A DNA stretch of 64,000 nucleotides, from contig JAIOAT010000001.1 in the NCBI GenBank assembly GCA_019873685.1, positions 100,419 through 164,418 on the forward strand, given 5' to 3'. Positions 2,444 through 61,282 of this stretch are shown piece after piece. The DNA comes from Chloroflexota bacterium (lineage in GTDB: Bacteria; Chloroflexota; Anaerolineae; Aggregatilineales; Ch27). Made by a program: the position numbers and the translations under genes. The notes below the pieces were generated by a model. The model searched no databases and was not told where the DNA came from. It worked only from the letters and a program-made list of their open reading frames with translations. The number at the start of each line of letters is the position of its first letter. Position 1 is the first letter of the stretch.

Positions 2444-4135
2444 TCAGCGCGCACCTTGCCGCTTGAGCACTTGCCCAATTGTACGCAGTATGATCTGTAT
2501 GTCCAATGCCAAGCTGATCTTGTCAATATATAGCATGTCCCAGCGCAGCCAATCGTCGAAGTCGGTGCTGCCACGCGCCCCAATCTGCCACAGGCCGGTG
2601 ATCCCGGGGCGGACCGTCAGGCGTTCGGTGTGCAACAGGGTGTAGCTATCCAGACCCCAGCTGGTGGGCCTGGGGCCAACGATACTCATGTCGCCGCGCA
2701 GCACGTTGAATATCTGCGGCAGTTCATCCAGGCTTGTCTTGCGGAGGATGCGGCCTACCCGCGTCACACGAGGGTCACGGGCGAGTTTGAGCGGCTCGGC
2801 CAGTTTGCCATCCGGGCCAAGCTTGGCCAGCCCCTGAGCGGCCAGTTCCTTGAGTTTCTCTTCAGCATCAGGAACCATGGTGCGGAATTTGTACATCTTA
2901 AAACGCCGGCCACCCAGCCCGGTGCGCTGTTGCACAAAGAAGATCGGGCGACCGCCATCGAGGTAGACAAGCAGCATCAGGACAAGCATCAGCGGCACGG
3001 TTACCGGCATGCTGATGACCACCAGGGTGATGTCGATCAGGCGCTTGAGCACCATGTACACCAGACGGGCGCTGGCGCTCTGGTAGGGCAGCTCGTTAAC
3101 CCAAAAATCGGGATCGTTGGGATGCTGGCTGCCTGAAGAGGAGGGACGCGGCTGGTCGGCATAGTCTGTCGGCAGAGGCTGCAGGAGTTGCCTGATCCAG
3201 GAGACGGGGTGTATAGCGCTGGCGGAACGCTTTGTAGCAGTCTCCGCGGGAGTCTTCCTGGGTGGGGCCACCGCTGGAATCGTTTGGTCGCTCTTCGCCC
3301 CGTCCTGCGGCGGACGCCGCTGATCCTCGGTCTGCAAAGGGATGGGGTGCAGTAGTGCTGCATCCAGGAGATCACGATAGATCAGGCCATCCTCCGGGAA
3401 GGCAGCGACGCCTACGGCGATTTCCAGGCCTAGGCGCATCTTGATCAGCGTATGAATCTGACGCGCCAGGCGGGTCGCCTGCTCACGGTCAGTTTCCGGC
3501 AGGCAGATCACCAGGTTATCGCCGCTCCAGGCGATGGTGTCGCTGCGGTAGATGGCCGACATGGCGATCTGGGCGATGCGTACCTTGAGGTAACGCTTCT
3601 GGAAGGCTGCCTCCAGATTGAAGCGATCGGTGATGTGCTCCTGCATCTCTTCAAGCCACTCTATCCGCAGGGCGACAAACCCAACGGGGCGATCGAAGCG
3701 GCGGGCGCGGAACAGCTCATTGTTGATCTTCTCCTCTCCCTCAGCCTCGGAGAGCACGCTTGACTTTTCCGGGGCAAGCAGCACGTTCTCAATGGCCTTC
3801 TCAATGTTGGCTGTGGCCAGGGAGATAACGCGGGCTACTGAGACGGTCAGGATCAGGACGACTACTTCGGTAATGATCAACGGCAGCGGGGTATCCGGGT
3901 GACCAATGGTCACTTTGGCAATGCCGTACAGGATCAGCGTGGGGATCAATACGTACTCTGAACGCTTGCCCAGGTCTGGCAGAGCTAGAATGGTCACAGC
4001 GACCATGGCGGCGATGACGTAGACAAAGGAGTCCAGGTCGATGTTGCCGAAATCCTGAATGTCTGGCCGTTCCAGGTTGAAGAGAATCACCAGCCAGATT
4101 GTCAGACCAATGAGCAAGAGTCGGAACCTAGCCAT
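2444..4135 (-). CDS. Fusion protein: 4 TM helices + degenerate GGDEF-like domain + bacterial sugar (phosphoglycosyl) transferase domain (WbaP/PglC-type priming enzyme)
   Basis: 563 aa. The N-terminus has 4 hydrophobic helices. The middle region aligns to a GGDEF domain ([17 protein letters not shown]...[31 protein letters not shown]...[12 protein letters not shown]), with SGDNL in place of GGDEF and the metal-binding DxD lost. A Pro-rich linker follows. The C-terminus carries Bac_transf motifs (KRLIDI..., [64 protein letters not shown]). Confidence 0.8.
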
Positions 4136-5587: not shown

Positions 5588-6859
5588 ATGGAACTGCGCC
5601 AATATCTGCGTATTATACTGAGAAGCTGGTGGTTCATCATCCCATTGACGCTGATCGCCCTGACGGCGTCCCTGGTATTTAGCTACGCAACCACGCCGAT
5701 CTACCGGGCGACGTCCTCGTACGTGGCAGGCCTGGCCCCGGATGTTGGGACTACCTCTGATGCGATCATCTACGGTCTGGATACCCTGGCCGGTCGAGAG
5801 CGCATCTTCTCCACATACTGCGGTGTGCTCAACAGTCACAACGTGCGGCAGGACGCCTACCGTCTCATGGGGGTGAGCGATCCGACAGGGCTGGGCCTGG
5901 ACGACTATGTTGTCCAGTGCAACGTTTTGCCCGATTCCAACATCCTGTTGTTGATTGTAGAGGGTCCGGCTCCCACGCTGGTTGCTCGGCTGAACGAAGC
6001 GGTTGGGTTGGCCGGGATGGCCCAGACCAACCGTCTATACCGCCCGTTCCCGCTGGAACGGCTCGATCCGGTTGTGCTGGAGCCAGAGCCGGTTTCACCG
6101 AACTACGCACAGAATGCGGTGCTCGGCGCGGTGCTGGGTCTGGTGCTGGGGATCACGCTGGCCTTCGTGGTTGAGTACCTGCGCAGCCCGCTCGAGCGTA
6201 TCGAGGGACTGACCATTCGCGACGCGAAGCTTGGCGTGTACAACGAGCGTTACTTCCTGCGGCGGTTTGAGGAAGAGATCAAGCGGGCGCGGGTGCGCAA
6301 CCGTCCGATCAGTCTGGCCTTCACCCAGCTAGTACCGGATGAGGACTTCAACCTTCTGGAAGAACCTGTGCAGGACGCTCTGCTACGTCAGGCGGCGCTG
6401 TTCATGCAGGATTCGCTGCGAGAAGGTGACATTGTGGCCTATTTTGGCCAGCACGTCTTTGGCCTGTTATTCGCTGAGACACCGGGGGATGAAGCCAGAG
6501 CGATGCTGGTGAATATGCACTATGATATCCGGTCGCGCACCTTCCGGTTTGAGGATTTCAGCGCCAGTTTTGAGGCTAAGTCTGGTGTTGTGGAGAGCAG
6601 CGGTGGGCTGCTGGGCACGCAGGCGATGATGGACAAGGCGGCTGAGGCGCTAAGAGATGCGGAGCTGGCCGGGGAGAATGCCATCCAACTCATTCGTACA
6701 TCGCCAGCACCGTTCATCCAGGGCGATGTCACCGGTACGGCGGCACCCACGCTGGCGTTTGATGCTTCTCCGCTGGATGACACCCTGGGAACAACCTGGA
6801 GTACAGGGAATCAGCCCCCTGTCTTTGATTCGGAACTTGAGCTACGGGAAGATCAGTAA
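5588..6859 (+). CDS. Polysaccharide co-polymerase (Wzz/PCP-like, two TM helices) fused to a degenerate GGDEF-like domain with an intact RxxD I-site
   Basis: 423 aa. Wzz-type N-terminus (MELRQYLRIILRSWWFIIPLTLIALTASLVFSYATTPIYRATSS), second TM AVLGAVLGLVLGITLAFVVEYL, then a GGDEF-like fold (LGVYNERYFLRRFEEEIKRARVRNRPISLAF...). LREGDIVAYFGQHVFGLLFAET aligns to lRxxDxvaRyGGDEFxxLlpeT, giving RxxD = REGD (nt 6419-6430) and A-site = GQHVF (nt 6446-6460). Confidence 0.75.
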   Translation: MELRQYLRIILRSWWFIIPLTLIALTASLVFSYATTPIYRATSSYVAGLAPDVGTTSDAIIYGLDTLAGRERIFSTYCGVLNSHNVRQDAYRLMGVSDPTGLGLDDYVVQCNVLPDSNILLLIVEGPAPTLVARLNEAVGLAGMAQTNRLYRPFPLERLDPVVLEPEPVSPNYAQNAVLGAVLGLVLGITLAFVVEYLRSPLERIEGLTIRDAKLGVYNERYFLRRFEEEIKRARVRNRPISLAFTQLVPDEDFNLLEEPVQDALLRQAALFMQDSLREGDIVAYFGQHVFGLLFAETPGDEARAMLVNMHYDIRSRTFRFEDFSASFEAKSGVVESSGGLLGTQAMMDKAAEALRDAELAGENAIQLIRTSPAPFIQGDVTGTAAPTLAFDASPLDDTLGTTWSTGNQPPVFDSELELREDQ

Positions 6860-8555
6860 TGGCTGATCGCGTGTTAGTCAGTCCTGGAAAGGATATCTGG
6901 CAGCGGCTGGATGACCGCCGAGTGCGCTACCGGTTGCTGGTAGCCGGCTTTGCGCTGCTGATGATCACCGTGGCGCTCATTGGCGGCTTTGTGATCGGCA
7001 CAACCGGCTATGGCTATGCGGTACTTTTCGGAGTCATCGGGGTGGTTGTGGCGGTGCTTGTTGCCGTACGGCCGGTGCTCGGTGTGTACATCCTGACCGT
7101 CAACGTGTATCTCAACCTGTCTGATCTTCTGGAAGTCAACCTGGGTATTCCCAGCGCGAATAAGTGGCTGGTTGCCCTGATCTTCGTGGGTGTGGTTGCC
7201 AACCATATCGTGTTGTATCGGCGTCCACTGGCCCTGGGCAGAGCACAATGGATTATCATCATTTACGGCGTTCTTCTGTTGATCGGGGCGTTGCAGGCTG
7301 AGGAACAATCTGTGGCGGTTGCCCAGTTCACTGACTGGGTGAAGGATTTTGTCATCCTGTTTATCGTCGTGCAGGTGACTACCAACGCTCGAGTCTGGAC
7401 GCGCATGCAATGGCTGCTGATTCTTTCGGCAGGATTAGTGGCGGCGTTGAGCGTCTACCAGATAGTCACCAACGATGTGAGCAATACCTTCTGGGGGCTG
7501 GCCAAGGCGCCGGTGCATCAGATTACCAGCGGGTTTGACAGTACCCGGGTGACCGGCCCGCTGGATGATCCTAACTTCTACGCCCAGATTTTGTTGATGG
7601 TTTTTCCGCTAGCTCTGTATCGATTTCTTGAGGAACGCCACCTTACCCTCCGCGTACTGGGTGGCGTGGCGGCGGCATTGATCGCGGCTGCGGCGATTTT
7701 CACATATTCACGTGGTGCGCTGTTCTCCCTGGCGGTTGTTGGAATACTGGTCACCCGTGAGCGACGGTGGAATCCCTACAAGGCTGCCGTGTACTGGGTG
7801 GCGTGGCGGCGGCATTGATCGCGGCTGCGGCGATTTTCACCTATTCGCGCGGTGCGCTGTTCTCCCTGGCGGTTGTTGGAATACTGGTCACCCGTGAGCG
7901 ACGGTGGAATCCCTACAAGGCTGCCGTGATCGCTGTTGCAGTTGTGGTTGTGCTGGTGGCCATCTTTCCGGTGGGATACTGGGAACGCTTTGTGCAGTTG
8001 CGCGACCTGTTTGTGTCGGATGCGGAGTTGCAGACAGAACGCTCTCTGCGCGGGCGCACAAGCGAAATGATCATCGCCTGGCAGATGTTCCTGGATCACC
8101 CGCTGTTGGGGGTCGGGCCGGGGAACTACGATAAGAACTACCTTAACTATTCATTCCTGCTGGGTATCGACAGCCGGCTGCAGGAACGGCAGGCGCATAG
8201 CTTGTACCTTGAGACGGCGGCGGAGCTAGGGGTGGTCGGCCTAGCAGTGTTGTTCGGCATAATCCTCAGCACGTTTGCCAGCCTGCGCAGCGCGAAGCGC
8301 ATGTTGAAGGCGAGCCATCGATCGGACCTGATACCCTGGGTGACCGGTCTGCAGTACGGTTTTACCTCTTATCTCATCACCAGCATCTTCCTGCATGGTG
8401 ACTACATTCGATATTTCTGGCTTCTGCTGGCTTTTGCTCTTTCCAGCGAAGGGATAGCGCGGTCGTTGCTGCAACAATACCGTGCGCGGAGGGAGCGCGA
8501 GGCGGCGGGGAACCAGAATCTGTTTGTCTTGCGAGAGACGGTACGGATTTCGTGA
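6859..8555 (+). pseudogene. Wzy/O-antigen-ligase family polymerase gene split by a 137-bp tandem duplication (track fragments 6859-7818 and 7767-8555)
   Basis: About 10 TM helices. Wzy_C-like motifs IFTYSRGALFSLAVVG and AHSLYLETAAELGVVGL. Both fragments encode the identical peptide VLGGVAAALIAAAAIFTYSRGALFSLAVVGILVTRERRWNPYKAAV. Deleting one 137-bp copy leaves 1560 nt, a single 519-aa ORF. The start overlaps the upstream stop (TAATG). Confidence 0.8.
7654..7927 (+). repeat. Direct tandem duplication, 2 x 137 bp (copies 7654-7790 and 7791-7927), 3 mismatches
   Basis: Read directly. Copy 2 repeats copy 1 except at 7704/7841 (a/c), 7710/7847 (a/g) and 7713/7850 (t/c). 137 is not a multiple of 3, so the host ORF is frame-shifted. 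Confidence 0.95.
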
Positions 8556-8629: not shown

Positions 8630-11600
8630 ATGAGACTCCAGGTGCGTTTAGCTTCCCTTGCATTGTTAAGCGGTCTTGTGGTGCTTATACTGGCAGTCAT
8701 TCCTGGCGTTACCGCCCAGAATCCTACCCCTACGTTAACGCCCACCCCGGTTCCTCTGCCAGCCTGTCAGCTCTACTACGTGACGGTCAACGAAGGCGTA
8801 GTACGCTCCTGTGCAGGAACGGGTTGCAGCAGAGTAGGCGGTGTGCGCAACCAGGAGGTTGTGTGCGTTCTGGGCGTATCAGAAACGCCGGGCTGGCTTC
8901 TGATCGATCTGGAACCCCAGAATGCTGATTCCCCGATTCGCTATATCAGCGCTGACATCGTAGCTCCGGGTTTACCCGGCTATACCGAGGATACTGAGTG
9001 CGAAGCCTGGGAGATCACCGTGCCGGAAGCGATTGTCCGGCGCTGCGCGGCGGAAACCTGCGCTGTGGTGGGTGGGTTGCCCCAGGGCACTCAGATGTGC
9101 GTAAAGGAGTACGGCGGCCAGTACGAGGATTGGCTGTATGTCGACTATTCGAGCTATAGCCCGATGAATGGCTGGGTCTCCGTTGACGTTGCCCAGCGTG
9201 TCCCTGCCGGGATGCCGGTCGTCATTCCTACGCCTAATCGTCCGCTGGTCATCCCAGAGTCGATCCTCAGTAGTGCACAGGCTCAGCCGGTCGCTCTGCA
9301 GGCGACACCCTCGCCAACCACCGGGGTAGAGCTTGCTCCGGCGACTCTCACGCCAACAGCCACCCTTCCAGTTTGCCCGCCAGGAGCGGCGACTGTGGGT
9401 GGAGCGGGTGAACTCCCCGCCTATGCGGCGGAGTACCCATTCCAGTTCACCTATGTTGTGCGTGCTGGAGACACCCTTCAGGGGCTGGCTAACCGCTTCT
9501 CCACAAACATGGATGTGATTCGGCAGGCTAATGCCCTGCAACCAGCCGCGGCCATTCTGGTAGGGCAGCAGCTGATCATTCCGGTGCAAACTGCAGAAGT
9601 CCCGGGACAGATCGTGCAGCCGGTGTCAGCCAGCGTTGGCGCGCCGACATGCGTGACTGCGACGCCCACGCCGATTCTGGCGGCGCCTCAGCAGGTAGTG
9701 GCCAGCGGCCCCTTGATTGCCCAGGATGTCGCGCTGGCTGGCTTCCAGGTGAACAATATCGATCTGGTTTCACCACGGAGCGCCGCACAGTTCCGGCTGG
9801 ACGCGCCCACCGACTGGCAGCTGGACGGCAATAACGTCTTGTACCTCAACCTGGAGTACACACAGAACCTCTCGCCGCTTGCTGATCCCATGCGCCCGCT
9901 GGTGAGCATCCTCAATGTCAGGCTGGATGATACGCTGATTTCCTCCACGACATTGACAGCCGCCAACGTGGGGCTGCAGACGCTGGTGATCCCATTGCCT
10001 TCCTCGCTGCTGGTCACGCCTGACCGGACGAACAGTCATCAGATCAGCATCACCTTCATGGCGGATGATTTCTGTAACAGCAACTCGCTGGCCAGAGCGT
10101 TCATCCGTTCCGACCTGTCATACTTCCACTTCGAATACCACCGGTTATCTCCCAGTCTGGATCTGGCGCGGTACCCGGAGCCGTTCTATCACGGGACGGT
10201 GATTGGCACTGAACCAGAGACGGTGTGGCTGGTCCTGCCGGATGAGCCTTCGCTGGCCGATCTGGAATCTGCGGCGGGTATTGCAGCGGCGCTGGGTCAG
10301 TTGACTTTCGGTGAGCTGCGTATCCGTGCCACGCTGGCTGGCGAGTTGACCGATCAGGTTCGCCGTGAGAACAACCTGCTGCTTGTCGGCGAGATCGGCA
10401 AACATGCCCTGATCGATCAGTTGTACGCCGCCAATGCTCTGCCGACACAGCTCAGTGGCAACGTGGTCAGACTGAACGGCCAGGACATAGCTGAATCGGT
10501 CGGGCTTGTTCAACTCATCGCCAACCCGGACAACCCCATGCGCGCCATCGGGGTCGCTACCGGCCTGAACGAGGCGGCGCTGCGCAAAGCGGCCCAGGCG
10601 CTTTCTGGCCCTCCGTCGGTGTTGAGCCTGGGCGGACCGCTGGCGCTGGTCAGCGATGTGCGCCCCAAGGCGGCAGTCCCGGTTGGGATGCGCACGGAAA
10701 CCACCCTGACCTTTGCCGAGCTGGGCGTGACGCAGATGCTGCTGGCCGGGATCGGCACGCAGACGGCCAATGTCAGGTTTACGGCGCCTGCCAGCGCGAC
10801 GATCGCCCCGGATGCTGCAGTTGACCTGATCTTCACCTATTCCGGGGCGCTTGGCCGGGGTTCGACAGTGACGGTGTTGATAAACAACACGCCCATCGCC
10901 AGCACGCTGCTGGCCCTGGAGTCGGTTACTGGCGGTGTAGTGCACGAGACTGATGAATTGGGCCGCAATCACCTGCGGGGGCGTATCCCGCCGGAGAGTA
11001 TCCAGCCTGGCGCTGAGAACACGCTGACTATCCTGGTGAATGGCATCGACAGTAACCCGGATGACTGTGTATTCCCCGACCCGCTGGTGGCCTGGTTCAA
11101 TGTCAGTCCGGAGAGTTCGATCTTCCTGCCTACCCAGGCAGCAGAGCCGGCAGCTGTAACGCCTCTGGTCAGCTGGTTCCCGGTGCCGTTCACCTCGCTA
11201 CCTGATCTCAGTGATGTGCTGGTGTCGTTGCCGCGGGCGGCGGGCGCTACTGAGATCGAACAGGGTCTGCGGATGGTGGCGCGTCTTGGCGCGGAGACCG
11301 TTGGCGGGGAAGCGTTCCGTCCGCGGTTCGCCGTTGGTGACCTGCCGGAAGGGGTCGACCTGGCTCAGTATCATCTGATCGTTATCGGACGACCGTCCAC
11401 CAATCCGCTGCTGGCGGCCCTCAACGCTAATCTGCCGCAGCCGTTCATCCCGGGTACGGATATACTTGAGCAGAAGTTGGATGACGTAGTCTACCAGTTA
11501 CCACCCGGCTACGATGTTGGGTTGCTGGAGATGATCAAGTCACCCTGGGCGCCGGAGCGGGCCATTCTGGTCATCGCCGGGCTGGGCGACCGCGGTCAGG

Positions 11601-12070
11601 CGGATGCAGTGCGCGCTCTGGCGGATAACGTCTACTGGCGCGGAGACCTGGAAGGCGATGTGGTGTTTGTCTCGCCGAACACGATCGCCGTGATTGACAC
11701 GCGCACAGTGTATGCGCAGGAAGATCTGGTAACCGCGTTGCCAGAGCTGGCTACCCAGTCGGTTATAGCAGCTCAGGCGACGAGCACGCCCATCCCGGTC
11801 TATACAGTAACACCAGGCCCAACGCCTACGGCAACAGCGACCAACACACCGACGCCGGTCGTTACCGCAACGCCGATTGTTCCCTTGCCATCACCGACGG
11901 CGCCGACGCCGATCCCGACCTTCCCGCCGCTTGATCCGGAGCAACTGCAGCCTGCCCGGATCGGTCAGCCAGAGTGGGTCAATATCCTGCTGGTTGTTAC
12001 AGCGGTTGTGCTGGTCACCACGATACTGTTTGGTATCCTGGTCGCCGTACGTTCGCGGAGGCGCCCTTGA
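8630..12070 (+). CDS. Secreted, C-terminally membrane-anchored BcsB-like protein with two Cys-containing SH3b-like modules and a LysM domain
   Basis: 1146 aa. Signal peptide, then two about 70-aa modules each with 4 Cys (CQLYYVTV...CAGTGC...VVCVLG; CEAWEITV...CAAETC...QMCVKEYG). LysM is YVVRAGDTLQGLANRFSTNMDVIRQANAL...GQQLIIP (from nt 9452). Two BcsB-like repeats follow (FRLDAPTDWQLDGNNVLYLNLEYTQNLSP...ILNVRLDDTLISSTTL...DDFCNSNS...DLARYPEPF; VRFTAPASATIAPDAAVDLIFTYSGAL...VTVLINNTPIAS). A PT-rich linker and a C-terminal TM (WVNILLVVTAVVLVTTILFGILVAV) match the single C-terminal anchor of BcsB. Confidence 0.6.
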   Translation: MRLQVRLASLALLSGLVVLILAVIPGVTAQNPTPTLTPTPVPLPACQLYYVTVNEGVVRSCAGTGCSRVGGVRNQEVVCVLGVSETPGWLLIDLEPQNADSPIRYISADIVAPGLPGYTEDTECEAWEITVPEAIVRRCAAETCAVVGGLPQGTQMCVKEYGGQYEDWLYVDYSSYSPMNGWVSVDVAQRVPAGMPVVIPTPNRPLVIPESILSSAQAQPVALQATPSPTTGVELAPATLTPTATLPVCPPGAATVGGAGELPAYAAEYPFQFTYVVRAGDTLQGLANRFSTNMDVIRQANALQPAAAILVGQQLIIPVQTAEVPGQIVQPVSASVGAPTCVTATPTPILAAPQQVVASGPLIAQDVALAGFQVNNIDLVSPRSAAQFRLDAPTDWQLDGNNVLYLNLEYTQNLSPLADPMRPLVSILNVRLDDTLISSTTLTAANVGLQTLVIPLPSSLLVTPDRTNSHQISITFMADDFCNSNSLARAFIRSDLSYFHFEYHRLSPSLDLARYPEPFYHGTVIGTEPETVWLVLPDEPSLADLESAAGIAAALGQLTFGELRIRATLAGELTDQVRRENNLLLVGEIGKHALIDQLYAANALPTQLSGNVVRLNGQDIAESVGLVQLIANPDNPMRAIGVATGLNEAALRKAAQALSGPPSVLSLGGPLALVSDVRPKAAVPVGMRTETTLTFAELGVTQMLLAGIGTQTANVRFTAPASATIAPDAAVDLIFTYSGALGRGSTVTVLINNTPIASTLLALESVTGGVVHETDELGRNHLRGRIPPESIQPGAENTLTILVNGIDSNPDDCVFPDPLVAWFNVSPESSIFLPTQAAEPAAVTPLVSWFPVPFTSLPDLSDVLVSLPRAAGATEIEQGLRMVARLGAETVGGEAFRPRFAVGDLPEGVDLAQYHLIVIGRPSTNPLLAALNANLPQPFIPGTDILEQKLDDVVYQLPPGYDVGLLEMIKSPWAPERAILVIAGLGDRGQADAVRALADNVYWRGDLEGDVVFVSPNTIAVIDTRTVYAQEDLVTALPELATQSVIAAQATSTPIPVYTVTPGPTPTATATNTPTPVVTATPIVPLPSPTAPTPIPTFPPLDPEQLQPARIGQPEWVNILLVVTAVVLVTTILFGILVAVRSRRRP

Positions 12071-12288
12071 TGCTCCGCAGGATTTTCAGGACGATCCTGA
12101 TCATTCTGCTGGGGATGGTCATTGGCTGTGAAGCAACCAGTGCGCAGAATGCACCGCTGACATGGTGGGTGGTGGGTAGTACGGTAAAGGTGCTGCCCAC
12201 TACCGCTCCGCCTGCACAGCCAGGCACGGCGGGAATATGCCCCTTTCCAGATCGTGCTGCGCGCCAACCAGATCGCGCTCAAGTTTGA
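12070..12288 (+). other. Signal-peptide-encoding 5' fragment of the downstream DUF4091-like gene, separated from it by an apparent +1 frameshift
   Basis: The ATG at 12070 overlaps the upstream stop (TGATG). It encodes MLRRIFRTILIILLGMVIGCEATSAQNAPLTWWVVGSTVKVLPTT..., then runs out of frame. The frame of 12254-14242 is open back to 12188 and reads LRLHSQARREYAPFQIVLRA. Confidence 0.55.
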
Positions 12289-14242
12289 CGCGCTTTCTGT
12301 GGCTTACCCTGAGCAGTACTTCAGCCTGCAGCTCTACCGCGAGCAGTATGTGCCCCTGTTGCACGTTCCGGACCCGGAGATTGTCTCGCTGGCCCGTCTA
12401 ACAGACGCAGGCGCGATCCCGGATGGGTTGCGCCCACTTGATGGCCCCGTGGAGGTGCGGACTGAGCAGCCCACGGTCATCTGGGCTGATCTCTATGTGC
12501 AACCGGAGACTCCGCCGGGGGACTATACGCTAACGCTGACCATCAAAGGTATGGGCGAACGCCGTGTCACGGTTCGCGTGTACCCGGTCGATCTGGGACC
12601 GCAAACGGCAGTGAGTGTGATCATCCCTGAAGATGCTGGCTGGACAATCCCGTTCTTTGGCGGTGATGATCCGGCGGCTTTTCACCGGGCGATGAATTCG
12701 TTGCTGATCGAACATGGCATAGTACCGGGGACTCTTGTGGCCCGGCCTGTTATGACGGCTGAGGGCTGGGATTTTTCACCGCTGGATGCGGAACTGGATG
12801 CGCTTCCGGCGGGGGCCTCCTTCTATGCGCCACTGCCGTACGACGATTCCTCCGGGCAGTATCTATTGCGGGATGAGCGTGGCCTGCCCTACCAGCAGGC
12901 AATGTTCGACGATCCTCATTTTGTCCGGCAGGCGGAGGCTTTCTTCCGGGCGCTGGCGGAATATCTGGGCGGCAAAGGTCGCCTGGAAGGGGCGCTGGTA
13001 TACCCAGATGATGAAACGCGCTGGGTTGGTGATGAACCGTGGCATGCCGGGCCGCGTGGATATGCCCGGTTGGCTCAGTGGACGGCAATAGCGCGGGCGG
13101 CGGGGCTGCGCGTGACCGCCTCCGGCGTGGACCCGGTGCCGCCCGGCCCGGCTGAACTTGGCTGGCTGGACCCCGATCTGGTGACTGATGACACCCATGT
13201 GCATGTGGACGTGCTGGATGCCGCGCCAGAGGTCTTTGCTGCCTGGATGTCCAGGCCGGGCAAGAGCAGCAGTGTATACCTGAATGAATACGGTGACCTG
13301 ATTGACCTGACGGCAGCGCTCCAGCGTGGGCTGATCTGGCATGTCTATGCCAGGGGCGTACGGATGATCGCCGGATATTCGGCGCTGGAGTGGGTGAGCA
13401 GCGAAGACTACGATCTGGTGGATCCGTGGCAGGACGTGACGGCGCTGTACCCGGTATCAGGCTACGGCGGTGGAGCGCTGGTCTGGCCGGGACCGCTGCC
13501 CTCAATCCGCCTGAAGCTGTTGCGGGAGGGCCTGGAAGACGCTCGTTTGCTGGACCTGTATGCACGGGCAACTAGCCTTGAGGAGGCCCGCGATCTGGCC
13601 GGGCAACTCACCCCCGGCGCGCTGGCTTACCAGAACCCGTCGGCTGACCTCTGGGACCAGGCGCATGAAGCCCTGCTGGCGGCGCTGACGGAGGGTGGAC
13701 GGGCGGACTTCAGCAGCTTCCGTCCACTGCCAATGACCGTCACCCAGGAACACCTGCTGATCGATTTTGACCGGCTTGGCCAGGCGGAAGAATGGGAATT
13801 CACCGACGTGACGGCTGAAGCCGTTGAATCGCCATGGGCGGAAAGCGACCAGGCTCTTCGTCTCACCTTCGAATCGGATGCTAACGAGGCCGGGTTGTGG
13901 TTAGGAACTTCGGACTGGGATGGGTGGCAGGCGTTGCAGTTCAACGTCAAGAGTCTCAGCCCGTACTTCACCACGCTTGATGTTGGTCTCACGGATGCAG
14001 ACGGTCATTACCTGCTAGTGCCGGACAAGGGATTGCTGCTTGGACCAAACGCGGACATGACCGTCACCCTGCCGCTGTTGATTCCTCTGGACGAAACGGA
14101 GCCATTTGACTGGTCGCAGATCAAGTATCTCAGCCTGCAGGTGGCAACCTCATACGAAGCACGGGATGGATTCGGTCAGCGGGGAGTCTATCCACTGGGG
14201 AGCCGCACCCTGATTCTTGACAATTTCAGGCTGGTGAAATGA
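12254..14242 (+). CDS. DUF4091-like putative glycoside hydrolase (GH123-like); probably the 3' part of a frameshifted gene starting at 12070
   Basis: 662 aa from a GTG start. Family-like motifs EYAPFQIVLRA (just upstream, in the same frame) and LKLLREGLEDARLLDLY near the C-terminal third. As called, it has no signal peptide. Confidence 0.5.
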   Translation: MLRANQIALKFDALSVAYPEQYFSLQLYREQYVPLLHVPDPEIVSLARLTDAGAIPDGLRPLDGPVEVRTEQPTVIWADLYVQPETPPGDYTLTLTIKGMGERRVTVRVYPVDLGPQTAVSVIIPEDAGWTIPFFGGDDPAAFHRAMNSLLIEHGIVPGTLVARPVMTAEGWDFSPLDAELDALPAGASFYAPLPYDDSSGQYLLRDERGLPYQQAMFDDPHFVRQAEAFFRALAEYLGGKGRLEGALVYPDDETRWVGDEPWHAGPRGYARLAQWTAIARAAGLRVTASGVDPVPPGPAELGWLDPDLVTDDTHVHVDVLDAAPEVFAAWMSRPGKSSSVYLNEYGDLIDLTAALQRGLIWHVYARGVRMIAGYSALEWVSSEDYDLVDPWQDVTALYPVSGYGGGALVWPGPLPSIRLKLLREGLEDARLLDLYARATSLEEARDLAGQLTPGALAYQNPSADLWDQAHEALLAALTEGGRADFSSFRPLPMTVTQEHLLIDFDRLGQAEEWEFTDVTAEAVESPWAESDQALRLTFESDANEAGLWLGTSDWDGWQALQFNVKSLSPYFTTLDVGLTDADGHYLLVPDKGLLLGPNADMTVTLPLLIPLDETEPFDWSQIKYLSLQVATSYEARDGFGQRGVYPLGSRTLILDNFRLVK

Positions 14243-23786: not shown

Positions 23787-25334
23787 TTACGGGGCATCCG
23801 GCTGCGCTTGGCGCAGGAAGGTCTGACGAATCTCCTCGGTTCGGTCGAAGAGTTTAGGTTCCAGCGCTGCCCACAAATCGGCTGGGGCGGCAATCTGGCC
23901 GCTCATGTTAGTTGCATAGGTCTGCAGCCAGGCGAAGAACGCTTCTGTGCCGATCTCCTGGCGCAGGGCGTGAAGAAACTGCGCTCCGCGTAGATAGACA
24001 GCGTTGATGTAGTCCCGAACGGTATTGAACTCATAGACGGTCGAGTCGACGAATCCTGTGGGATGGAAGCTATTGACGCGAAAATCCCACCACCAGTCGA
24101 CCAGGGGCGGGTAGCTTTCCTGCAGAAAGACGTATTCACTGTAGGTTGACAACGCCTCATCCAGCCAGGGGTGGCGGCTCTGATCATTGCCCACCCGGTG
24201 GTACCACCACTGGTGGGCAACCTCATGCGCCGTGATCAGGGTCAGGTAGGAAGCCGGATCGCCGCGATAAGAGCGGAACCACTCGCCGCCTACATAGACC
24301 AGCCCGCTGAATTCCATGCCGTCTGGAAAATCACTTTCCAGGATGATCAGGCGGTCATATGGATAGGAGCCATACAGATCGGCGAAGAGATTGAGGGCAG
24401 CTACTGCAGTATGCAGCGCCTGCTCTGCCGCTTCAGCGGGTGTGGACTCAAAGGTGTAAAGCTCGACCATGACTGTGCCATCAAGTGCAGGAGCAACGGT
24501 CTGGCGATAATTATCGCCAAGGCTGAGGGTGATTTCACGGGCGTTGGCCAGTTGATATCGCCAGCCGCATGACTCACGGCTCGCTGTGCCGGGGCCAACG
24601 ACCGTCATGGCCGGGGGCAGATTCTCCACAGCCAGGCACAGGTCAAAATCTGCGGCAGGCAAGACCGTCTGCTCGCCAACCGTGATGGGAACTGGTGTTA
24701 TCCATTGTCCTTCAGCACGCGCTGCTACCGCCGGGAACCAGAGGGCCAGGTTTAGCTGTCGATCGGAATAGCCCAGATATCCCTGTCGCCCAAAAGGGCC
24801 AGCGCCCATACGCGGAATGTCTACCGTGTAATCGAGGCTCAGGGTTACCTGGCAACCCGGTTGCAGCGGGGTTGGAAGGGAGACTGTCAGGCGTGCTCCT
24901 TCCAGAATGGCCTCAGAGGTGCCGGTTTCCTCAGCAATGACAACGTCTTCCAGGTGGAACACGCCGGGTTCCCGATTGGGCAGCACATACAGGACCAGTT
25001 GATCCAGCGACGTCTCTTCTGTATTGCGGAAGGTCACGTGCTGGTGCGCACCAAGACGTTTGAGCGCATAGTCAAGTTCCGCCCGGATCACGTAAGTGAT
25101 GGCCGGCCTATCATCGACAGGGGCGCAGCGTTCCGTTTGTCCTGCCGGTTCGGGCGTGGCTGTTGGGGACTGGTATAACGCGGATGACGGTGTGGCTGAT
25201 GTTGTCTGTATGGATATCGCGGTGGTTGTTGGCGCAGGTGGGGCGATCGTCGCCGGAGGAGCCGAGGGAAGGCAACCGATCATAAGAGCCAGTAACAGGA
25301 GACTAGAAAGGGTGGCGTTCATCAAGGGTTTCAT
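23787..25334 (-). CDS. M1-family (gluzincin) metallopeptidase, lipoprotein
   Basis: HEVAHQWWY-X-E (HEXXH-X18-E: HEVAHQWWYHRVGNDQSRHPWLDE). The start is trimmed to ATG 25334, giving the signal MKPLMNATLSSLLLLALMIGC (lipobox-like). Confidence 0.8.
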   Translation of the reverse strand: MKPLMNATLSSLLLLALMIGCLPSAPPATIAPPAPTTTAISIQTTSATPSSALYQSPTATPEPAGQTERCAPVDDRPAITYVIRAELDYALKRLGAHQHVTFRNTEETSLDQLVLYVLPNREPGVFHLEDVVIAEETGTSEAILEGARLTVSLPTPLQPGCQVTLSLDYTVDIPRMGAGPFGRQGYLGYSDRQLNLALWFPAVAARAEGQWITPVPITVGEQTVLPAADFDLCLAVENLPPAMTVVGPGTASRESCGWRYQLANAREITLSLGDNYRQTVAPALDGTVMVELYTFESTPAEAAEQALHTAVAALNLFADLYGSYPYDRLIILESDFPDGMEFSGLVYVGGEWFRSYRGDPASYLTLITAHEVAHQWWYHRVGNDQSRHPWLDEALSTYSEYVFLQESYPPLVDWWWDFRVNSFHPTGFVDSTVYEFNTVRDYINAVYLRGAQFLHALRQEIGTEAFFAWLQTYATNMSGQIAAPADLWAALEPKLFDRTEEIRQTFLRQAQPDAP

Positions 25335-25666
25335 CGCATGGCGTGCTGGCTGCACGGTGAATTCGCGGCCTGCGCAGAGACCCATTATATCCGGTGTCGG
25401 ACTACCCGGCGGCAAGTTACCTGCTGTGATTGCGCCAGGAATTGCCCCATCTGTTGATAGCTGTGCCGAACGTCGGCGATTTCTGTGAAGATCGTTACCG
25501 GCGCCAGCGCAGGATTCTTGCTCTTGTGCTGTGGCCGCTGTGCGGCTAGAATGGCGCGTGTTCTTCCTGCTACCCTGGATGCGTATCCTGCGTATCATCT
25601 GTGGGTTATAGGTAGCGTTAAATCCGCGCTCATTCCGCGATCATCCTGATCATGGGAGGGGGAATT

Positions 25667-26718: not shown

Positions 26719-29700
26719 ATGGGCTTCAAGATTCTCATTGTCGATGATACGCCGGATACCGTGCAAATGCTGTCCGTCTGGTTGCAGGGGGATGGGTACC
26801 AGACTGTAGCCATCAGCAACTCACTGGACGCCGTATCGGTGATTCGACAGGAAAAGCCCGATCTGGTGCTCATCGATAGCGCTATGCCGGGCCGCGATGG
26901 CATCGAGACATGCCAGGAACTGCATGCCAACCCGCTTACGCGGCACATTCCCATTCTGTTGCTGAGCAGCAAGAACCCCGCTGAGGCCCGCGCCGATAGT
27001 CTGATGGCCGGCGCTGTTGACTACGTCAGCAAGCCGATGAACCTGCGCCAGCTTAGCGATCAGATCGCGGCCTGCCTTGCACCGCAGGAGCAGGGACTGC
27101 GGCCTGCAGACGCCCGCCGCATGGTTGATGAAGTTGTCTATGAGGCGCTGGAACTGCTGTCGTGCGATCTGGCCTGGCTGTTCCGGTATGACTCTGTGCA
27201 CAGGACGTTGGAGAGCCATGCCATCGCGGCGACGCTAGGGCGTGAAGCAGGACAGCGTTTATCAGCGCGGCTGGGCGTAGATGCCACGGCGTTGCAGGTA
27301 GGAGGGTTTGACAATGGCAGCCCGCTGGCGGCGGCGATCAGCACGCGGGAGACCGTGCTTGACCTGCCGCTGGAGCGGTTTCGCCAGCATCCTGATACCC
27401 AGTTGCTGTTTCAGGGCTTTTCGGCGCTGGGTGTGACGTCCATCAGCCTGATACCCCTGGCTCTGGCGCGGCAGGTGCTGGGCGTGCTGGTGGTGGGTTA
27501 CGTTCGCCCACGCGATCGGCATGGCGAGTCGCCGTGGCCGGCAATCACGCTGCTCAGCAGGCAGGCTGCTATGGCCCTTGACTATACGCGTCTGGCCAGT
27601 GTCCTGGCTGAGCAGGAAGAGACTCGGAAAGCCGAACATGCCTTCTTGACCACCGTGCTGGATACGATGGGCGATGGCCTGATCGTTATCGGCGAGCATG
27701 GTGAAATTGAATATGTCAACAACCGCCTGCTGCGGATGACCGAATACGGGCGTGAGGAACTGATCGGCCAGCGGGTCGATATGCTCTTCCACCCCGATGA
27801 TCGCCAGGCACTGGTCTACGGATTGCTGCACGAGCGCGGATCCACGATCAAGTTTGACCAGCGCCTCTACACGCGCAGCCAGCATGTGATTCCGGTGCTG
27901 CTGTCGCGTTCCTCTTTTGCGCGGATCGACCCGACCGCGCCGCAGCAGGTGCTGGTTCTAAGCGATCTGACCGTGCAAAAGAGCCGTGAGGAAGCGCTGG
28001 AACGGTACAGCCAGCAACTCCAGGCGCTGAACCGGGCGGCTGAGGCAATCACTTCATCGCTGACCCCCCAGGAAGTGATTCACGAAATCCTGACTGCGGC
28101 GATGGCTGTAGCCAATGCTGAGGGGGCTTCGGTGTTGTTGCGCAGCGACGACAACCCTGCTGAGCTGGTCTTCATGGCGGCGGTAGGGCCGGAAGCCGAG
28201 CGTCTGCATGGCATGCGGGTGCCGATCAATGAAGGGATTGCTGGCTGGGTGGTTCGGGAAGCTACCGGCCAGCTTGTGGTTGATACAGCGCAGGATGATC
28301 GCTTTTATCGGGGCGTTGACGCTCATTCCGGTTTGACGACGCGTTCGCTGATCGCCGTGCCGTTGATCGTGGCCGACCAGGTGATCGGTGTGCTGGAAGT
28401 GGTGAACAAACGCGCTGGTACTTTTGACCGTGCGGACATGGATTTGCTGGAGAGCATTGCCGGCACGGCAGCGGTAGCGATCGAGAATTCGCGACTGTTT
28501 GAACAGACACGCCGTCGGCTTAACGATCTGGGGACCCTGCTGGATGCCAGCGCGGCGGTGTCGTCAACACTTGATTTCGGCAGCGTTCTGGAGTTGATCG
28601 CCCGGCGCTTGCTGGACGCCCTGCATGTGGAACGTTGCCAGGTTATTTCCTGGGACCGCGGAACCAATACCCTGATCACGCTGGCTGAAGTGGTTGACGC
28701 CTACTGGCGGTCGGGGAGCGGGCCGCTGGTCGAGATCGCTGATTCGCCGCTACGCAACCGGGCGCTGACAGCGGGCCGTGCGCAGTATGTGCAGCTGGGC
28801 GATCCGTCAACGACGCCACAGGATCAGGCCGAGCTTATTGCGCTGGGCCAACAGGCGATGCTGGTGATCCCCCTGTGGTTTGGGCGCAAAGTCATTGGCC
28901 TGGCTTCAGTATGTAAGGGCGCGGGCAGCATAGCGCCTGCCGATATCGAGCATGTTGGCCGGATCGTCAGTAACTGGACAACCCGTGTTGAGCGCAGCCA
29001 GCAGCGGTGGGCTGAGAAATCATTCCTTGATGATCTCTGTAATTTGCTGCAAGCCGTCCCCGGCGTTATGTGGGTGCGGATAGAGGAGTGGCTCCCCCAG
29101 GAACGGCGGCTGCGCCGGTTGCGGGAGACCGGCTTCGCACTCTGGAGCGATCGGGAAGGCGCTCAGCTTGATCTGGATCAGCATCCCACGATGAAACGGG
29201 TGCTTTCCATCGCCCAGCCCAGGGTAGTGGAACGGCAGAATCTGGAGGCCGATCCGCGCGAGCAGGACCTGCTGGCGCAGGTTGGCGGAGAGGTCTGCCT
29301 GATGGCCCCATTTATTATCCGGGGGCAGCCGGAGGGCCTGGTTAAGCTGATTGACTCGGATAGCCGACGCACATTTGATGTCGAGCAGGTCTCGCTATGC
29401 CAGGGTATCGCCAATGTGGGAGGGCCTGGTTAAGCTGATTGACTCGGATAGCCGACGCACATTTGATGTCGAGCAGGTCTCGCTATGCCAGGGTATCGCC
29501 AATGTGGTTGGCAATGCCCTGGAGAACGCCTATCTCTATCAGAGTCTGGAGCGTCGTGCGGCGGCGCTGGAAGCTGCTTACGCTGAACTGAAGCAGGCCG
29601 ATCAGCTCAAGGAGGAGTTACTGCAAAATCTTTCCCATGAGATTCAGACCCCGCTGATGCATGTGATGGGGTACATGGAACTGATGTATAACGAAGCCTT

Positions 29701-30343
29701 TGGGCCGCTAAATGCTGAACAGCGCGAGAAGCTCTCATTCGTTGTGGAACGGGCACGGCATCTTTCCGAACTGGCCAGGAACATCATCACCGTGCAGGCA
29801 CTGCAGGCCCGGACGCTGCATATGCAACCCTCCAGCCTGGATGAGATTCTCCCCCGCGTGATCAGCCAGTGGGAACCGGAAGCAGCCAAGCGTTCGATCT
29901 CCCTGAAAATGCAGCTGCCAGACAAACTCCCCCGGGTGATGGCTGACCCCAACCGTCTGGCGGAAGTGGTCGGACACCTGTTGAGCAATGCGGTGAAATT
30001 CAGCCCGACCGGTGCGCCGATCGAAGTGACTGCTCACGAACGCGAAGGCGTTGTTGAGGTTAGTGTTCGTGATCATGGGCCGGGGATCGCGCCTGAGCAT
30101 CATGAACGGATCTTCCGGCGCTTCTATCAGGTGGATGGCGGGGTGTCGCGCAAGCATGGAGGCGCCGGGCTGGGTCTGGCCATTGTCCAGGAAGTCATCA
30201 CCCAGCATGGTGGGCGGGTCTGGGTGGAAAGCGAACCGGGGCAGGGCAGTACTTTCTTTTTCACCGTGCCCAAAGCTTCGACCGTCTCCACGGCGGATTT
30301 TGAACCGACAACGGGCGTCTGGGACGAGACATGGCAGGGCTAG
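26719..30343 (+). pseudogene. Hybrid sensor histidine kinase (receiver-GAF-PAS-GAF-GAF-HisKA-HATPase) split by an 88-bp tandem duplication (track fragments 26719-29433 and 29351-30343)
   Basis: N-terminal receiver (ILIVDDTPD...DLVLIDSAMPGRDG), PAS (GDGLIVIGEHGEIEYVNN), GAF segments, HisKA H-box (LQNLSHEIQTPL), HATPase N/G boxes (LLSNAVKF, RDHGPGI, GGAGLGLAIV). Both fragments encode EGLVKLIDSDSRRTFDVEQVSLCQGIANV. Deleting one copy leaves 3537 nt, a single 1178-aa ORF. Confidence 0.85.
29332..29507 (+). repeat. Perfect direct tandem duplication, 2 x 88 bp (29332-29419 and 29420-29507)
   Basis: Read directly. The unit GAGGGCCTGGTTAAGCTGATTGACTCGGATAGCCGACGCACATTTGATGTCGAGCAGGTCTCGCTATGCCAGGGTATCGCCAATGTGG occurs twice back to back with no mismatch. 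88 is not a multiple of 3. Confidence 0.95.
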
Positions 30344-48834: not shown

Positions 48835-49181
48835 GGGCGTCCTGGCTGTCTAGCGCCGTCGGGGGTATCGAATGTGGACCGGTGCAAACGACGCTGAACC
48901 CTGGGGAAGCACATCGTGAGCAAGCCTGGAAAGGAGGGTGGGAATAAGACTGGTCGACGCCTCTGAAGTAAAATCAGACCGTTTGGGGGCGTTTTTCAGT
49001 CTCCTGTATAATTATACCTGTCTCTGCCTTGATGCCCTATCTGCCATCAACAGGCCCAGACTCTACTTCCATACCTTAGTGCGCAGTGCCTTCGGGGATG
49101 TCCTCGACGTGGTGTCGGGAGGCGAAGGCGTATATTGTGTCTGAGCTGGTTCTGGCCCAGACAAAGGAGAGTAGTCTCACC

Positions 49182-60408: not shown

Positions 60409-60481
60409 ACCGCTGGCACTGTGGCCGCTGGCTCACAGTAGCAGCTTGGCCCACAACAGGACGCGGGTGTTCCGCCTCCGG

Positions 60482-61282
60482 CTATTCGTCAGCCGGGGGC
60501 GGAGTGTCTTCTTCCGCGAGGGTAGCCAGGAAGTGCCGATCAGCATCGTCCAGGCTGGCGGTCAGAAGTAGATCAGGCCGGCGCTGCCAGGTGCGACGCA
60601 GGCCATGTTCGCGTCGCCAGCGGGTAATACGGGCGTGATGGCCGTTGATGAGCACATCCGGCACTCTTAGTCCCCGGAATTCTGGCGGACGGGTGTAGTG
60701 TGGGCCTTCCAGAATGCCGGTTGCATGGCTGTCCTGCTCGGCAGCCTGCGGCGCGCCCAGCGCACCCGGGATCAGGCGGGTGAGGACATCAATCAGCACC
60801 ATGGCTGGTAGTTCGCCGCCGGTGAGCACGTAGTCTCCGATGCTTAGTTCATCGCTGACGACCAGTTCGCGCACACGCTCATCGACGCCTTCGTAGTGCC
60901 CGCAGATGAGCGCCAGGCGCGGATGAGCCGCCAGTTCGCGGGCGATCGCCTGAGTCAGGACACGTCCCTGCGGGGAAAGCAGGATCACTGGCACCTGCTT
61001 CAGATCGCTTCCCAGCACACTTTCTACAGCAGCGACGATCGGCTCCACTTTCATCACCATACCGCCCCCACCGCCGTATGGGGTATCATCGGTAATGTGG
61101 TGCTTGTCCGTGGTGTAATCGCGGATGTTATGCAGGACAACGGTCAGCAAGCCGTTGTCCTGAGCACGCTTGAGGATGCTCTCGGAGAGCGGCCCGTGGA
61201 ACATAGCAGGGAATAACGTGAAGACATCGATGCGCACGGCCTGCCTGCTTTCTGTTTGTTGATCCTGAAAATGCCCCACCAT
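60482..61282 (-). CDS. trmD: tRNA (guanine37-N1)-methyltransferase
   Basis: [46 protein letters not shown]. An alternative GTG start at 61237 would give the canonical N-terminus. The acidic C-terminal tail is atypical. Confidence 0.9.

Follow-up and report, generated by a model that had tools for sequence, protein, structure and literature searches.

Two natural alleles in tandem within a split Wzy_C-family gene of an Anaerolineae genome: a probable assembly artefact

The split Wzy_C-family gene and its genomic setting

The window (the whole stretch of DNA analysed here, 64 kb in length) carries a polysaccharide cluster that is syntenic across all relatives. Besides a Wzy_C-family gene, this cluster comprises genes for a Bac_transf priming transferase, a GT2 glycosyltransferase, an APH-like kinase, a GT4 glycosyltransferase and a polysaccharide deacetylase, along with those listed in Table 1. 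The Wzy_C-family gene is present as two overlapping open reading frames, and a 137-nt unit within it is repeated in tandem; because its length, 137 = 3 × 45 + 2, is not divisible by 3, the repeat interrupts the reading frame and gives the gene a broken appearance. The split into an N-terminal and a C-terminal frame, which a sequence-only reading of this DNA had described together with the restoration of a 519-aa frame upon removal of a single copy, was reproduced: deleting either of the two copies yields the identical 519-aa ORF. Each of the two fragment proteins is on record once, and both records come from one NCBI contig of 395,833 bp.

The repaired 519-aa protein matches the Pfam family Wzy_C (PF04932) with E = 1.1e-22 and 80.8 bits (cut-off, 31.7), residues 271-420 covering positions 2-149 of the 149 in the profile, and PF04932 is also the precomputed domain of the homologues. 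A Kyte-Doolittle scan with a 19-residue window and a threshold of 1.6, which is a crude method for topology, placed 11 hydrophobic segments, some of which overlap in part, within residues 28-429, or about ten segments in all, in keeping with a polytopic membrane protein of some 10-12 transmembrane segments. Residues 401-415 (HSLYLETAAELGVVG) fit the WaaL-type motif H[NSQ]x9Gxx[GTY] of the large external loop region; this motif falls downstream of the 137-nt duplication. The duplicated unit itself, residues 266-311, contains a pair of hydrophobic segments together with a conserved stretch, YSRGA. Given that the duplicated unit is located upstream of the motif, a real frameshift would cut off the probable catalytic region from the membrane core.

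Pfam PF04932 takes in WaaL ligases, Wzy-type polymerases and IctB-like proteins. The repaired gene product is similar to Wzy_C/O-antigen ligase-like proteins in its domain, in the approximately ten hydrophobic segments, in the WaaL-type motif and in the polysaccharide-cluster setting, the difference being that the host here is an uncultured Anaerolineae bacterium and the gene is known from sequence alone. Among the matches listed, the 120 homologues come mostly from assemblies of Anaerolineae and other Chloroflexota; nearly all are single proteins of ~450-550 aa, with a few shorter or partial sequences among them. Taken together, these features suggest that the repaired gene is a member of the Wzy_C / O-antigen ligase-like family and encodes a predicted polymerase or ligase.

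Table 1 Genes, repeat copies, junctions and lesions in the window.
Feature	Position in window	Strand	Description
Wzz/GGDEF protein gene	5588-6859		Polysaccharide cluster
N-terminal fragment ORF, Wzy_C-family gene	6859-7818	+	319 aa; ends with the out-of-frame tail YWVAWRRH; P0004
137-nt repeat, copy 1	7654-7790	+	Allele ACA TAT TCA CGT; codes for residues 266-311 of the intact protein
137-nt duplication junction	7790/7791		…AAGGCTGCCGT joined to GTACTGGGTGG…
Junction 25-mer, 137-nt duplication			TACAAGGCTGCCGTGTACTGGGTGG
137-nt repeat, copy 2	7791-7927	+	Allele ACC TAT TCG CGC
Two alleles of the 137-nt unit			ACATATTCACGT and ACCTATTCGCGC
C-terminal fragment ORF, Wzy_C-family gene	7767-8555	+	262 aa; includes the motif HSLYLETAAELGVVG and the larger part of the Wzy_C domain; P0121
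SH3-LysM-BcsB protein gene	8630-12070		Polysaccharide cluster
731-aa gene	12070-14242	+	Same polysaccharide cluster; interrupted by the 23-nt deletion; no Pfam family on record
23-nt deletion	12222-12223	+	GAGGCGCCCCTCCTCCTGCATGT missing; present in all six relatives aligned there
REC-PAS-GAF-HisKA-HATPase hybrid sensor kinase gene	26719-30343	+	Split by the 88-nt duplication into ORFs of 904 aa and 330 aa
88-nt duplication, copy 1	29332-29419	+	Perfect tandem repeat
88-nt duplication, copy 2	29420-29507	+	Perfect tandem repeat; single copy in L026-L028
Junction 25-mer, 88-nt duplication			ATCGCCAATGTGGGAGGGCCTGGTT

Geometry and allelic origin of the 137-nt repeat

Tandem Repeats Finder reported the repeat at 7650-7928 (period 137, 2.0 copies, 97% matches, 0 indels, score 530), and base-by-base comparison of the two copies showed identity at 134 of the 137 positions. 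All three mismatches (copy 1/copy 2: 7704 A/C, 7710 A/G and 7713 T/C) are at codon position 3, in the frames of both the N-terminal and the C-terminal ORF, and all three are synonymous (ACA/ACC for Thr, TCA/TCG for Ser and CGT/CGC for Arg). Both the tandem arrangement and the synonymous third-position character of the copy differences are thus as described in the sequence-only reading. Within the unit, 50 nt precede the first of these SNPs and 77 nt follow the last one.

At the junction, the exact overlap is 1 nt (G), with the flanks forming an imperfect CCGCG/CCGTG match. Direct and inverted repeats were checked as possible drivers of slippage or template switching, and no direct repeats in register with the 137-nt period were found; an imperfect 21-nt repeat was considered as a driver of the duplication and rejected because its spacing (111 nt) is wrong. 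A 39-nt probe from the unit matched the window twice, both times in the tandem copies (0 matches expected by chance), and no third copy, paralogue or paralogous donor of the copy-1 allele was detected within the 64-kb window.

As the sequence-only reading had proposed, the locus was compared with its orthologues. The protein cluster at 90% contains four intact, unsplit members of 519 aa (P0001, P0122, P0123 and P0124), of which P0123 differs from the repaired window protein by one residue and is present on 11 Logan contigs. More distant homologues, of ~500-530 aa, are not split either. At the DNA level, five P0123 loci from five sequencing runs (L018-L022) are 97.4-99.3% (about 98%) identical to the window and hence represent another strain of the same species, and three sister lineages (L017; L023/L024, from the Anaerolineae MAG GCA_013178165.1; and L025) are 88-90% identical. 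The 137-nt unit is single-copy at every one of these same-species and sister-lineage loci, evidence that covers a sister strain diverged by ~2% (11 contigs) and more distant relatives. Exact look-ups with a 423-aa neighbouring protein, the 319-aa fragment and P0004 revealed no second assembly of the window's own strain in the collections searched. A scan of genome contigs retrieved only relatives at 53% identity or less, which say nothing on the duplication. Scanning the JGI metagenomes with a 39-nt core sequence from the unit, in which the three variable sites were made degenerate, gave 0 matches; the species is missing from the collection scanned.

The comparison with these single-copy loci assigns each copy to an allele. 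Copy 1 is identical to the single copy of L018-L022 over all 137 nt. Copy 2 shows the states of L017, L023/L024 and L025 at the three variable sites and is identical to the same-species sequence at the other 134; because these states are common to all three sister lineages, copy 2 carries the ancestral states. Judged by these comparisons, the two copies are shown to be two natural alleles placed head to tail, each of which appears to exist as a single functional copy in nature. The differences between the copies are the difference between existing alleles and, accordingly, do not come from mutation after the duplication; by our own arithmetic, the chance that three random substitutions produce the same allele pattern is ~6/(137 × 3)^3, or ~9e-8. 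The suggestion in the sequence-only reading that two functional alleles, not a decayed duplicate, lie head to tail is therefore borne out, copy 1 corresponding to the same-species sequence and copy 2 to the sister-lineage states.

Over 18 kb, the window and the sister strain are separated by 251 synonymous and 56 nonsynonymous SNPs (82% synonymous), 79% of the SNPs are at codon position 3, and 44 of the 348 triplets of consecutive SNPs span 10 nt or less. The three differences in 137 nt amount to 2.2%, equal to the local divergence between strains. The sequence-only reading had placed weight on the synonymous sites. All three differences are indeed synonymous, but a clustered synonymous trio is ordinary between-strain polymorphism in this region. 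A 460-nt run that ends with copy 1 is identical to the sister strain, and the preceding 500 nt contain 10 SNPs; SNP-free stretches as large as the 460-nt one occur elsewhere in the region.

Structural lesions elsewhere in the window

The sequence-only reading had also pointed to a frameshift near 12200 and to a second frame-breaking duplication at 29332-29507. The former proved to be a deletion: compared with six related loci, the window lacks 23 nt at 12222/12223. Putting the 23 nt back produces the 731-aa ORF without an internal stop, and the gene is intact in L017-L020 and L023-L025. Homology at the deletion junction is 1 nt or less. The latter is real, with Tandem Repeats Finder reporting positions 29331-29507, a period of 88 and copies that are 100% identical; the overlap at its junction is 1 nt, and it has no allelic signature, its copies being identical. 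When the duplication is collapsed, the sensor kinase has 1178 aa and differs in 5 residues from P0131 (L026), which is intact on 8 Logan contigs. Compared with L026-L028, the 88-nt duplication is the sole indel over positions 16719-38946 of the window.

In the ~48 kb of the window that were compared directly with same-species assemblies, there are exactly three frame-breaking differences (the 137-nt duplication, the 88-nt duplication and the 23-nt deletion), all of them structural, and no nonsense changes or coding frameshifts of 1-2 nt. The other indels between positions 463 and 18532 are one in-frame indel of 3 nt (at 3236) and intergenic ones of 1-2 nt, and from 54.6 to 64 kb only small intergenic indels were observed. 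The stretch from 38.9 to 54.6 kb is covered by no same-species locus and was judged only by the completeness of Pfam domains: its genes have full-length domains, and no split genes are visible in these remaining 16 kb. A fourth candidate lesion, in an M1 peptidase gene (603-aa ORF; 434 aa in relatives), was rejected as merely a different start-codon call.

Each of the three lesions has 1 nt or less of exact microhomology at its junction, and none of the three was found in any independent assembly of relatives. No consistent pattern of haplotype switches or steps in SNP density was observed at the three junctions; a dense patch of SNPs borders on just one of them, that of the 23-nt deletion. 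Compared with the sister strain, the repaired Wzy_C gene shows 10-13 nucleotide differences and 1 amino-acid change, the repaired sensor kinase 38 nucleotide differences and 5 amino-acid changes, and the repaired 731-aa gene 49 nucleotide differences and 14 amino-acid changes. The repaired genes thus appear to bear the signature of continued strong purifying selection. The earlier suspicion of a systematic cause is strengthened by these observations, in that the lesions are structural, specific to this assembly, lacking in junction homology and located in well-conserved genes.

Origin of the duplication and its consequences

If the duplication were real and older, the copies would have diverged by ordinary mutation in a dead gene. 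The mere existence of copy differences, and nothing else, speaks for such a history, which is hardly conceivable given that the three differences coincide exactly with those by which the sister strain departs from the ancestral states; it is effectively refuted by this correspondence. In addition, random mutation of the unit would rarely make all three changes synonymous (P = 0.025-0.033) or confine them to 10 nt or less (P = 0.011), and outside the duplication the gene differs from the sister strain by only those 10-13 nt and the one amino-acid change, showing no sign of relaxed selection. It is also very unlikely that the duplication is real and that the gene still works, either as a split protein reconstituted from overlapping fragments or through ribosomal frameshifting. 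Both ORFs hold the whole duplicated 45-residue segment with its two hydrophobic, helix-like stretches, so that the membrane topology could, in principle, survive. However, inspection of the sequence revealed neither a clear ribosome-binding site before the GTG at 7767 nor a slippery or recoding motif, none of the relatives has a split gene, and a similar lesion breaks the unrelated cytoplasmic kinase as well.

A real and recent duplication by recombination between strains, resulting in a precisely reverting null allele, has more in its favour but is, on the whole, unlikely. Such a duplication would arise either by homology-facilitated illegitimate recombination, whereby incoming sister-strain DNA pairs homologously at its left end and undergoes an illegitimate join at the right one, or, alternatively, by an ordinary duplication followed by a short conversion patch; with either route, copy 1 would be the donor allele and copy 2 the resident allele. 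The observed pattern, with copy 1 of the sister-strain type and copy 2 ancestral, fits this scenario, and the 460-nt run of identity that ends with copy 1 would suit an imported tract. Reversible tandem duplications in capsule genes are documented (Waite et al. 2001, 2003, cited in PMC4243769). Against recombination between strains stands the requirement for three independent, very recent and rare structural events within 22 kb, nearly without junction homology and in genes under strong purifying selection, with no further gene decay in the ~48 kb compared and with none of the three lesions seen in an independent assembly. The illegitimate joins of homology-facilitated recombination usually use several nucleotides, and the exact homology at this junction is only 1 nt. 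Two of the three lesions belong to one exopolysaccharide cluster, a frequent target of real loss of function; losing polysaccharide clusters is a common genuine adaptation, and this placement counts against an artefact.

The two options offered by the sequence-only reading, namely, a mis-join of strains and a duplication templated from a diverged allele, remain the two live explanations. Of these, the mis-join is the reading we prefer: the 137-nt duplication is probably an artefact of assembling a strain-mixed metagenome, and the tandem duplication is most likely present in no cell. The source is probably an unannotated, metagenome-assembled Anaerolineae genome, the sampled population comprising two or more conspecific strains, and an assembly, scaffolding, gap-closing or contig-merging step probably joined two overlapping pieces end to end, unmerged. 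The left piece would end at 7790, with the allele of the sequenced sister strain, and the right piece would start at the equivalent of 7654, with the ancestral allele; the 137-nt overlap, which runs across a polymorphic patch, would thereby be written twice. The same fault could have doubled an invariant 88-nt overlap at 29332-29507 and closed a 23-nt gap at 12223 without sequence. We infer both the way in which the assembly failed and the mixing of strains in the sample. The living organism most likely has an intact gene for a 519-aa membrane protein of the Wzy_C family, belonging to the exopolysaccharide cluster. An overlap set by a fixed k in a de Bruijn graph was considered as a specific source of the duplicated lengths and rejected: a k of 77-79 would account for the 77 nt that follow the last SNP, yet neither the 50 nt before the first one nor the 88-nt duplication fits.

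A comparable error has been described as heterotype false duplication, whereby both haplotypes of a single locus end up next to each other in the assembly, giving rise to false gene models (Ko et al. 2022, Genome Biol 23:205, PMC9516828); the marks by which it is recognized are a halved read depth over either copy, k-mers that are haplotype-specific and single-copy in the reads, and discordant read pairs or a gap in depth at the junction (PMC9516828). The likeness to the present locus lies in adjacent allelic versions that differ only at polymorphic sites and in the presumably false gene break. Independent assemblies of the same organism show one copy in this class of errors; here, one copy is seen in those of the conspecific strain (~98%) and of the three sister lineages. 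Haplotype-specific variants, which heterotype false duplication requires, were found in the two copies. The differences are that the known cases come from diploid vertebrates, on a kb-Mb scale and often beside scaffold gaps (PMC9516828), whereas the present segment measures 137 nt, no gap is visible, and bacterial strains occurring together in a metagenome would take the place of the haplotypes.

The idea, also put forward in the sequence-only reading, that the duplication acts as a reversible off-switch makes sense as a mechanism, although it goes with the less likely of the two explanations and has no positive support. The known precedent is the pneumococcal genes cap3A, cap8E and tts (Streptococcus pneumoniae serotypes 3, 8 and 37), in which reversible tandem duplications cause reversible loss of the capsule (Waite et al. 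2001 Mol Microbiol 42:1223; 2003 Microbiology 149:497; cited in PMC4243769). The cap3A type resembles the repeat studied here as a short, frame-breaking tandem duplication in a surface-polysaccharide ORF that recombination can remove precisely; the pneumococcal duplications arise from resident sequence, their copies are identical at the start, and ON and OFF forms occur in one clone. In contrast, the copies of the 137-nt repeat are two alleles, and a similar duplication and a deletion co-occur in unrelated genes of the window. Copies that could have been identical at their origin are found only in the 88-nt duplication, not in the 137-nt repeat.

It is quite unlikely that the duplications are real and that an Anaerolineae (Chloroflexota) population turns off both a Wzy-like gene and a sensor kinase by revertible tandem duplications, at least one of which would have come from recombination with a conspecific strain. 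If this were true, duplication-based phase variation of the pneumococcal type would extend to an environmental phylum and would be tied to gene flow between strains. We know of no reversible null allele of this kind described in Chloroflexota. A real duplication would nevertheless be a known kind of reversible null allele, with no new mechanism, and of moderate interest.

The repeat is real in the sequence record, but the organism itself most probably lacks it. The main worth of the observation is that it flags this assembly and provides a recognizable signature of a class of errors. Metagenome-assembled genomes could be screened for this class by searching for short tandem repeats of a length that is not a multiple of 3 inside conserved genes, a further mark being copy differences that are synonymous and equal to alleles in related assemblies. 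If the three lesions are artefacts, the assembly reports at least three conserved genes (the Wzy-like gene, the 731-aa gene and the 1178-aa kinase) as broken that are probably intact. False fragments of this kind pass into pseudogene counts, pathway calls and protein-family clustering, and the two fragments of the Wzy_C-family gene, P0004 and P0121, are already included in a large protein collection.

Disruptions in the sensor kinase and 731-aa genes

A perfect 88-nt tandem duplication splits the gene for a 1178-aa REC-PAS-GAF-histidine kinase, a protein whose length is kept at ~1160-1180 aa in many assemblies of Anaerolineae and other Chloroflexota. A 731-aa gene located downstream of the BcsB-like gene is broken by a 23-nt deletion, at a site where the relatives have GAGGCGCCCCTCCTCCTGCATGT. 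The two flanks of this deletion differ in the number of single-nucleotide differences between the window and the same-species assemblies (strain SNPs): six are clustered within the adjoining 45 nt upstream, and none were found over 190 nt downstream.

Genes and other features in the window, with their positions
Feature	Position	Strand
Bac_transf priming-transferase gene	2444-4135	minus
3-nt indel in the priming-transferase gene	3236	
Wzz-like/GGDEF gene	5588-6859	
SH3-LysM-BcsB gene	8630-12070	
SNP hot spot	~10000-12000	
731-aa gene	12070-14242	
23-nt deletion	12222/12223	
M1-peptidase ORF	23787-25598	minus
REC-PAS-GAF-histidine kinase gene	26719-30343	
88-nt tandem duplication	29332-29507	
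H+-pyrophosphatase ORF	49086-51848	
Indel-rich intergenic stretch	60422-60455	
tRNA (m1G) methyltransferase ORF	60482-61282	minus
17-nt tandem repeat	60901-60934	

Genes of the polysaccharide region

The gene that precedes the Wzy_C gene encodes a protein with a Wzz-like (chain-length determinant) segment at its N terminus and a GGDEF domain at its C terminus, and the stop codon of this gene overlaps the Wzy_C start codon. All relatives share this arrangement. The presence of both domains in one protein, together with the stop/start overlap with Wzy_C, suggests that control of polysaccharide chain length is linked with c-di-GMP signalling.

The gene for a 1146-aa protein in which SH3 and LysM domains are fused to a BcsB (cellulose synthase subunit B) domain has a hot spot of strain SNPs in its 3' half, with 16-29 SNPs per 500 nt compared to 1-10 per 500 nt across much of the remaining region. 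The sole in-frame coding indel seen between strains, 3 nt long, is in the priming-transferase gene, the product of which consists of 563 aa in the window vs. 564 aa in the same-species loci.

Other coding and intergenic features

The M1 peptidase comprises 603 aa under the longest-ORF rule vs. 434 aa as called in the relatives. This discrepancy reflects start choice only, stop and indel differences being absent from the translation; the shorter call leaves a ~570-nt 5' stretch that is apparently non-coding. In the 920-aa H+-pyrophosphatase, the match to a 645-position Pfam profile covers 811 residues, which implies that, compared to the family model, this protein has large insertions or extended loops.

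Between the L,D-transpeptidase and tRNA (m1G) methyltransferase genes lies a short intergenic stretch in which ~7-9 single-base indels within 35 nt separate the window from the same-species assemblies; this spot is either hypervariable or poorly aligned. The intact methyltransferase ORF contains a 17-nt tandem repeat that is imperfect (88% matches over 1.9 copies), and no indel relative to the relatives was found at this site.
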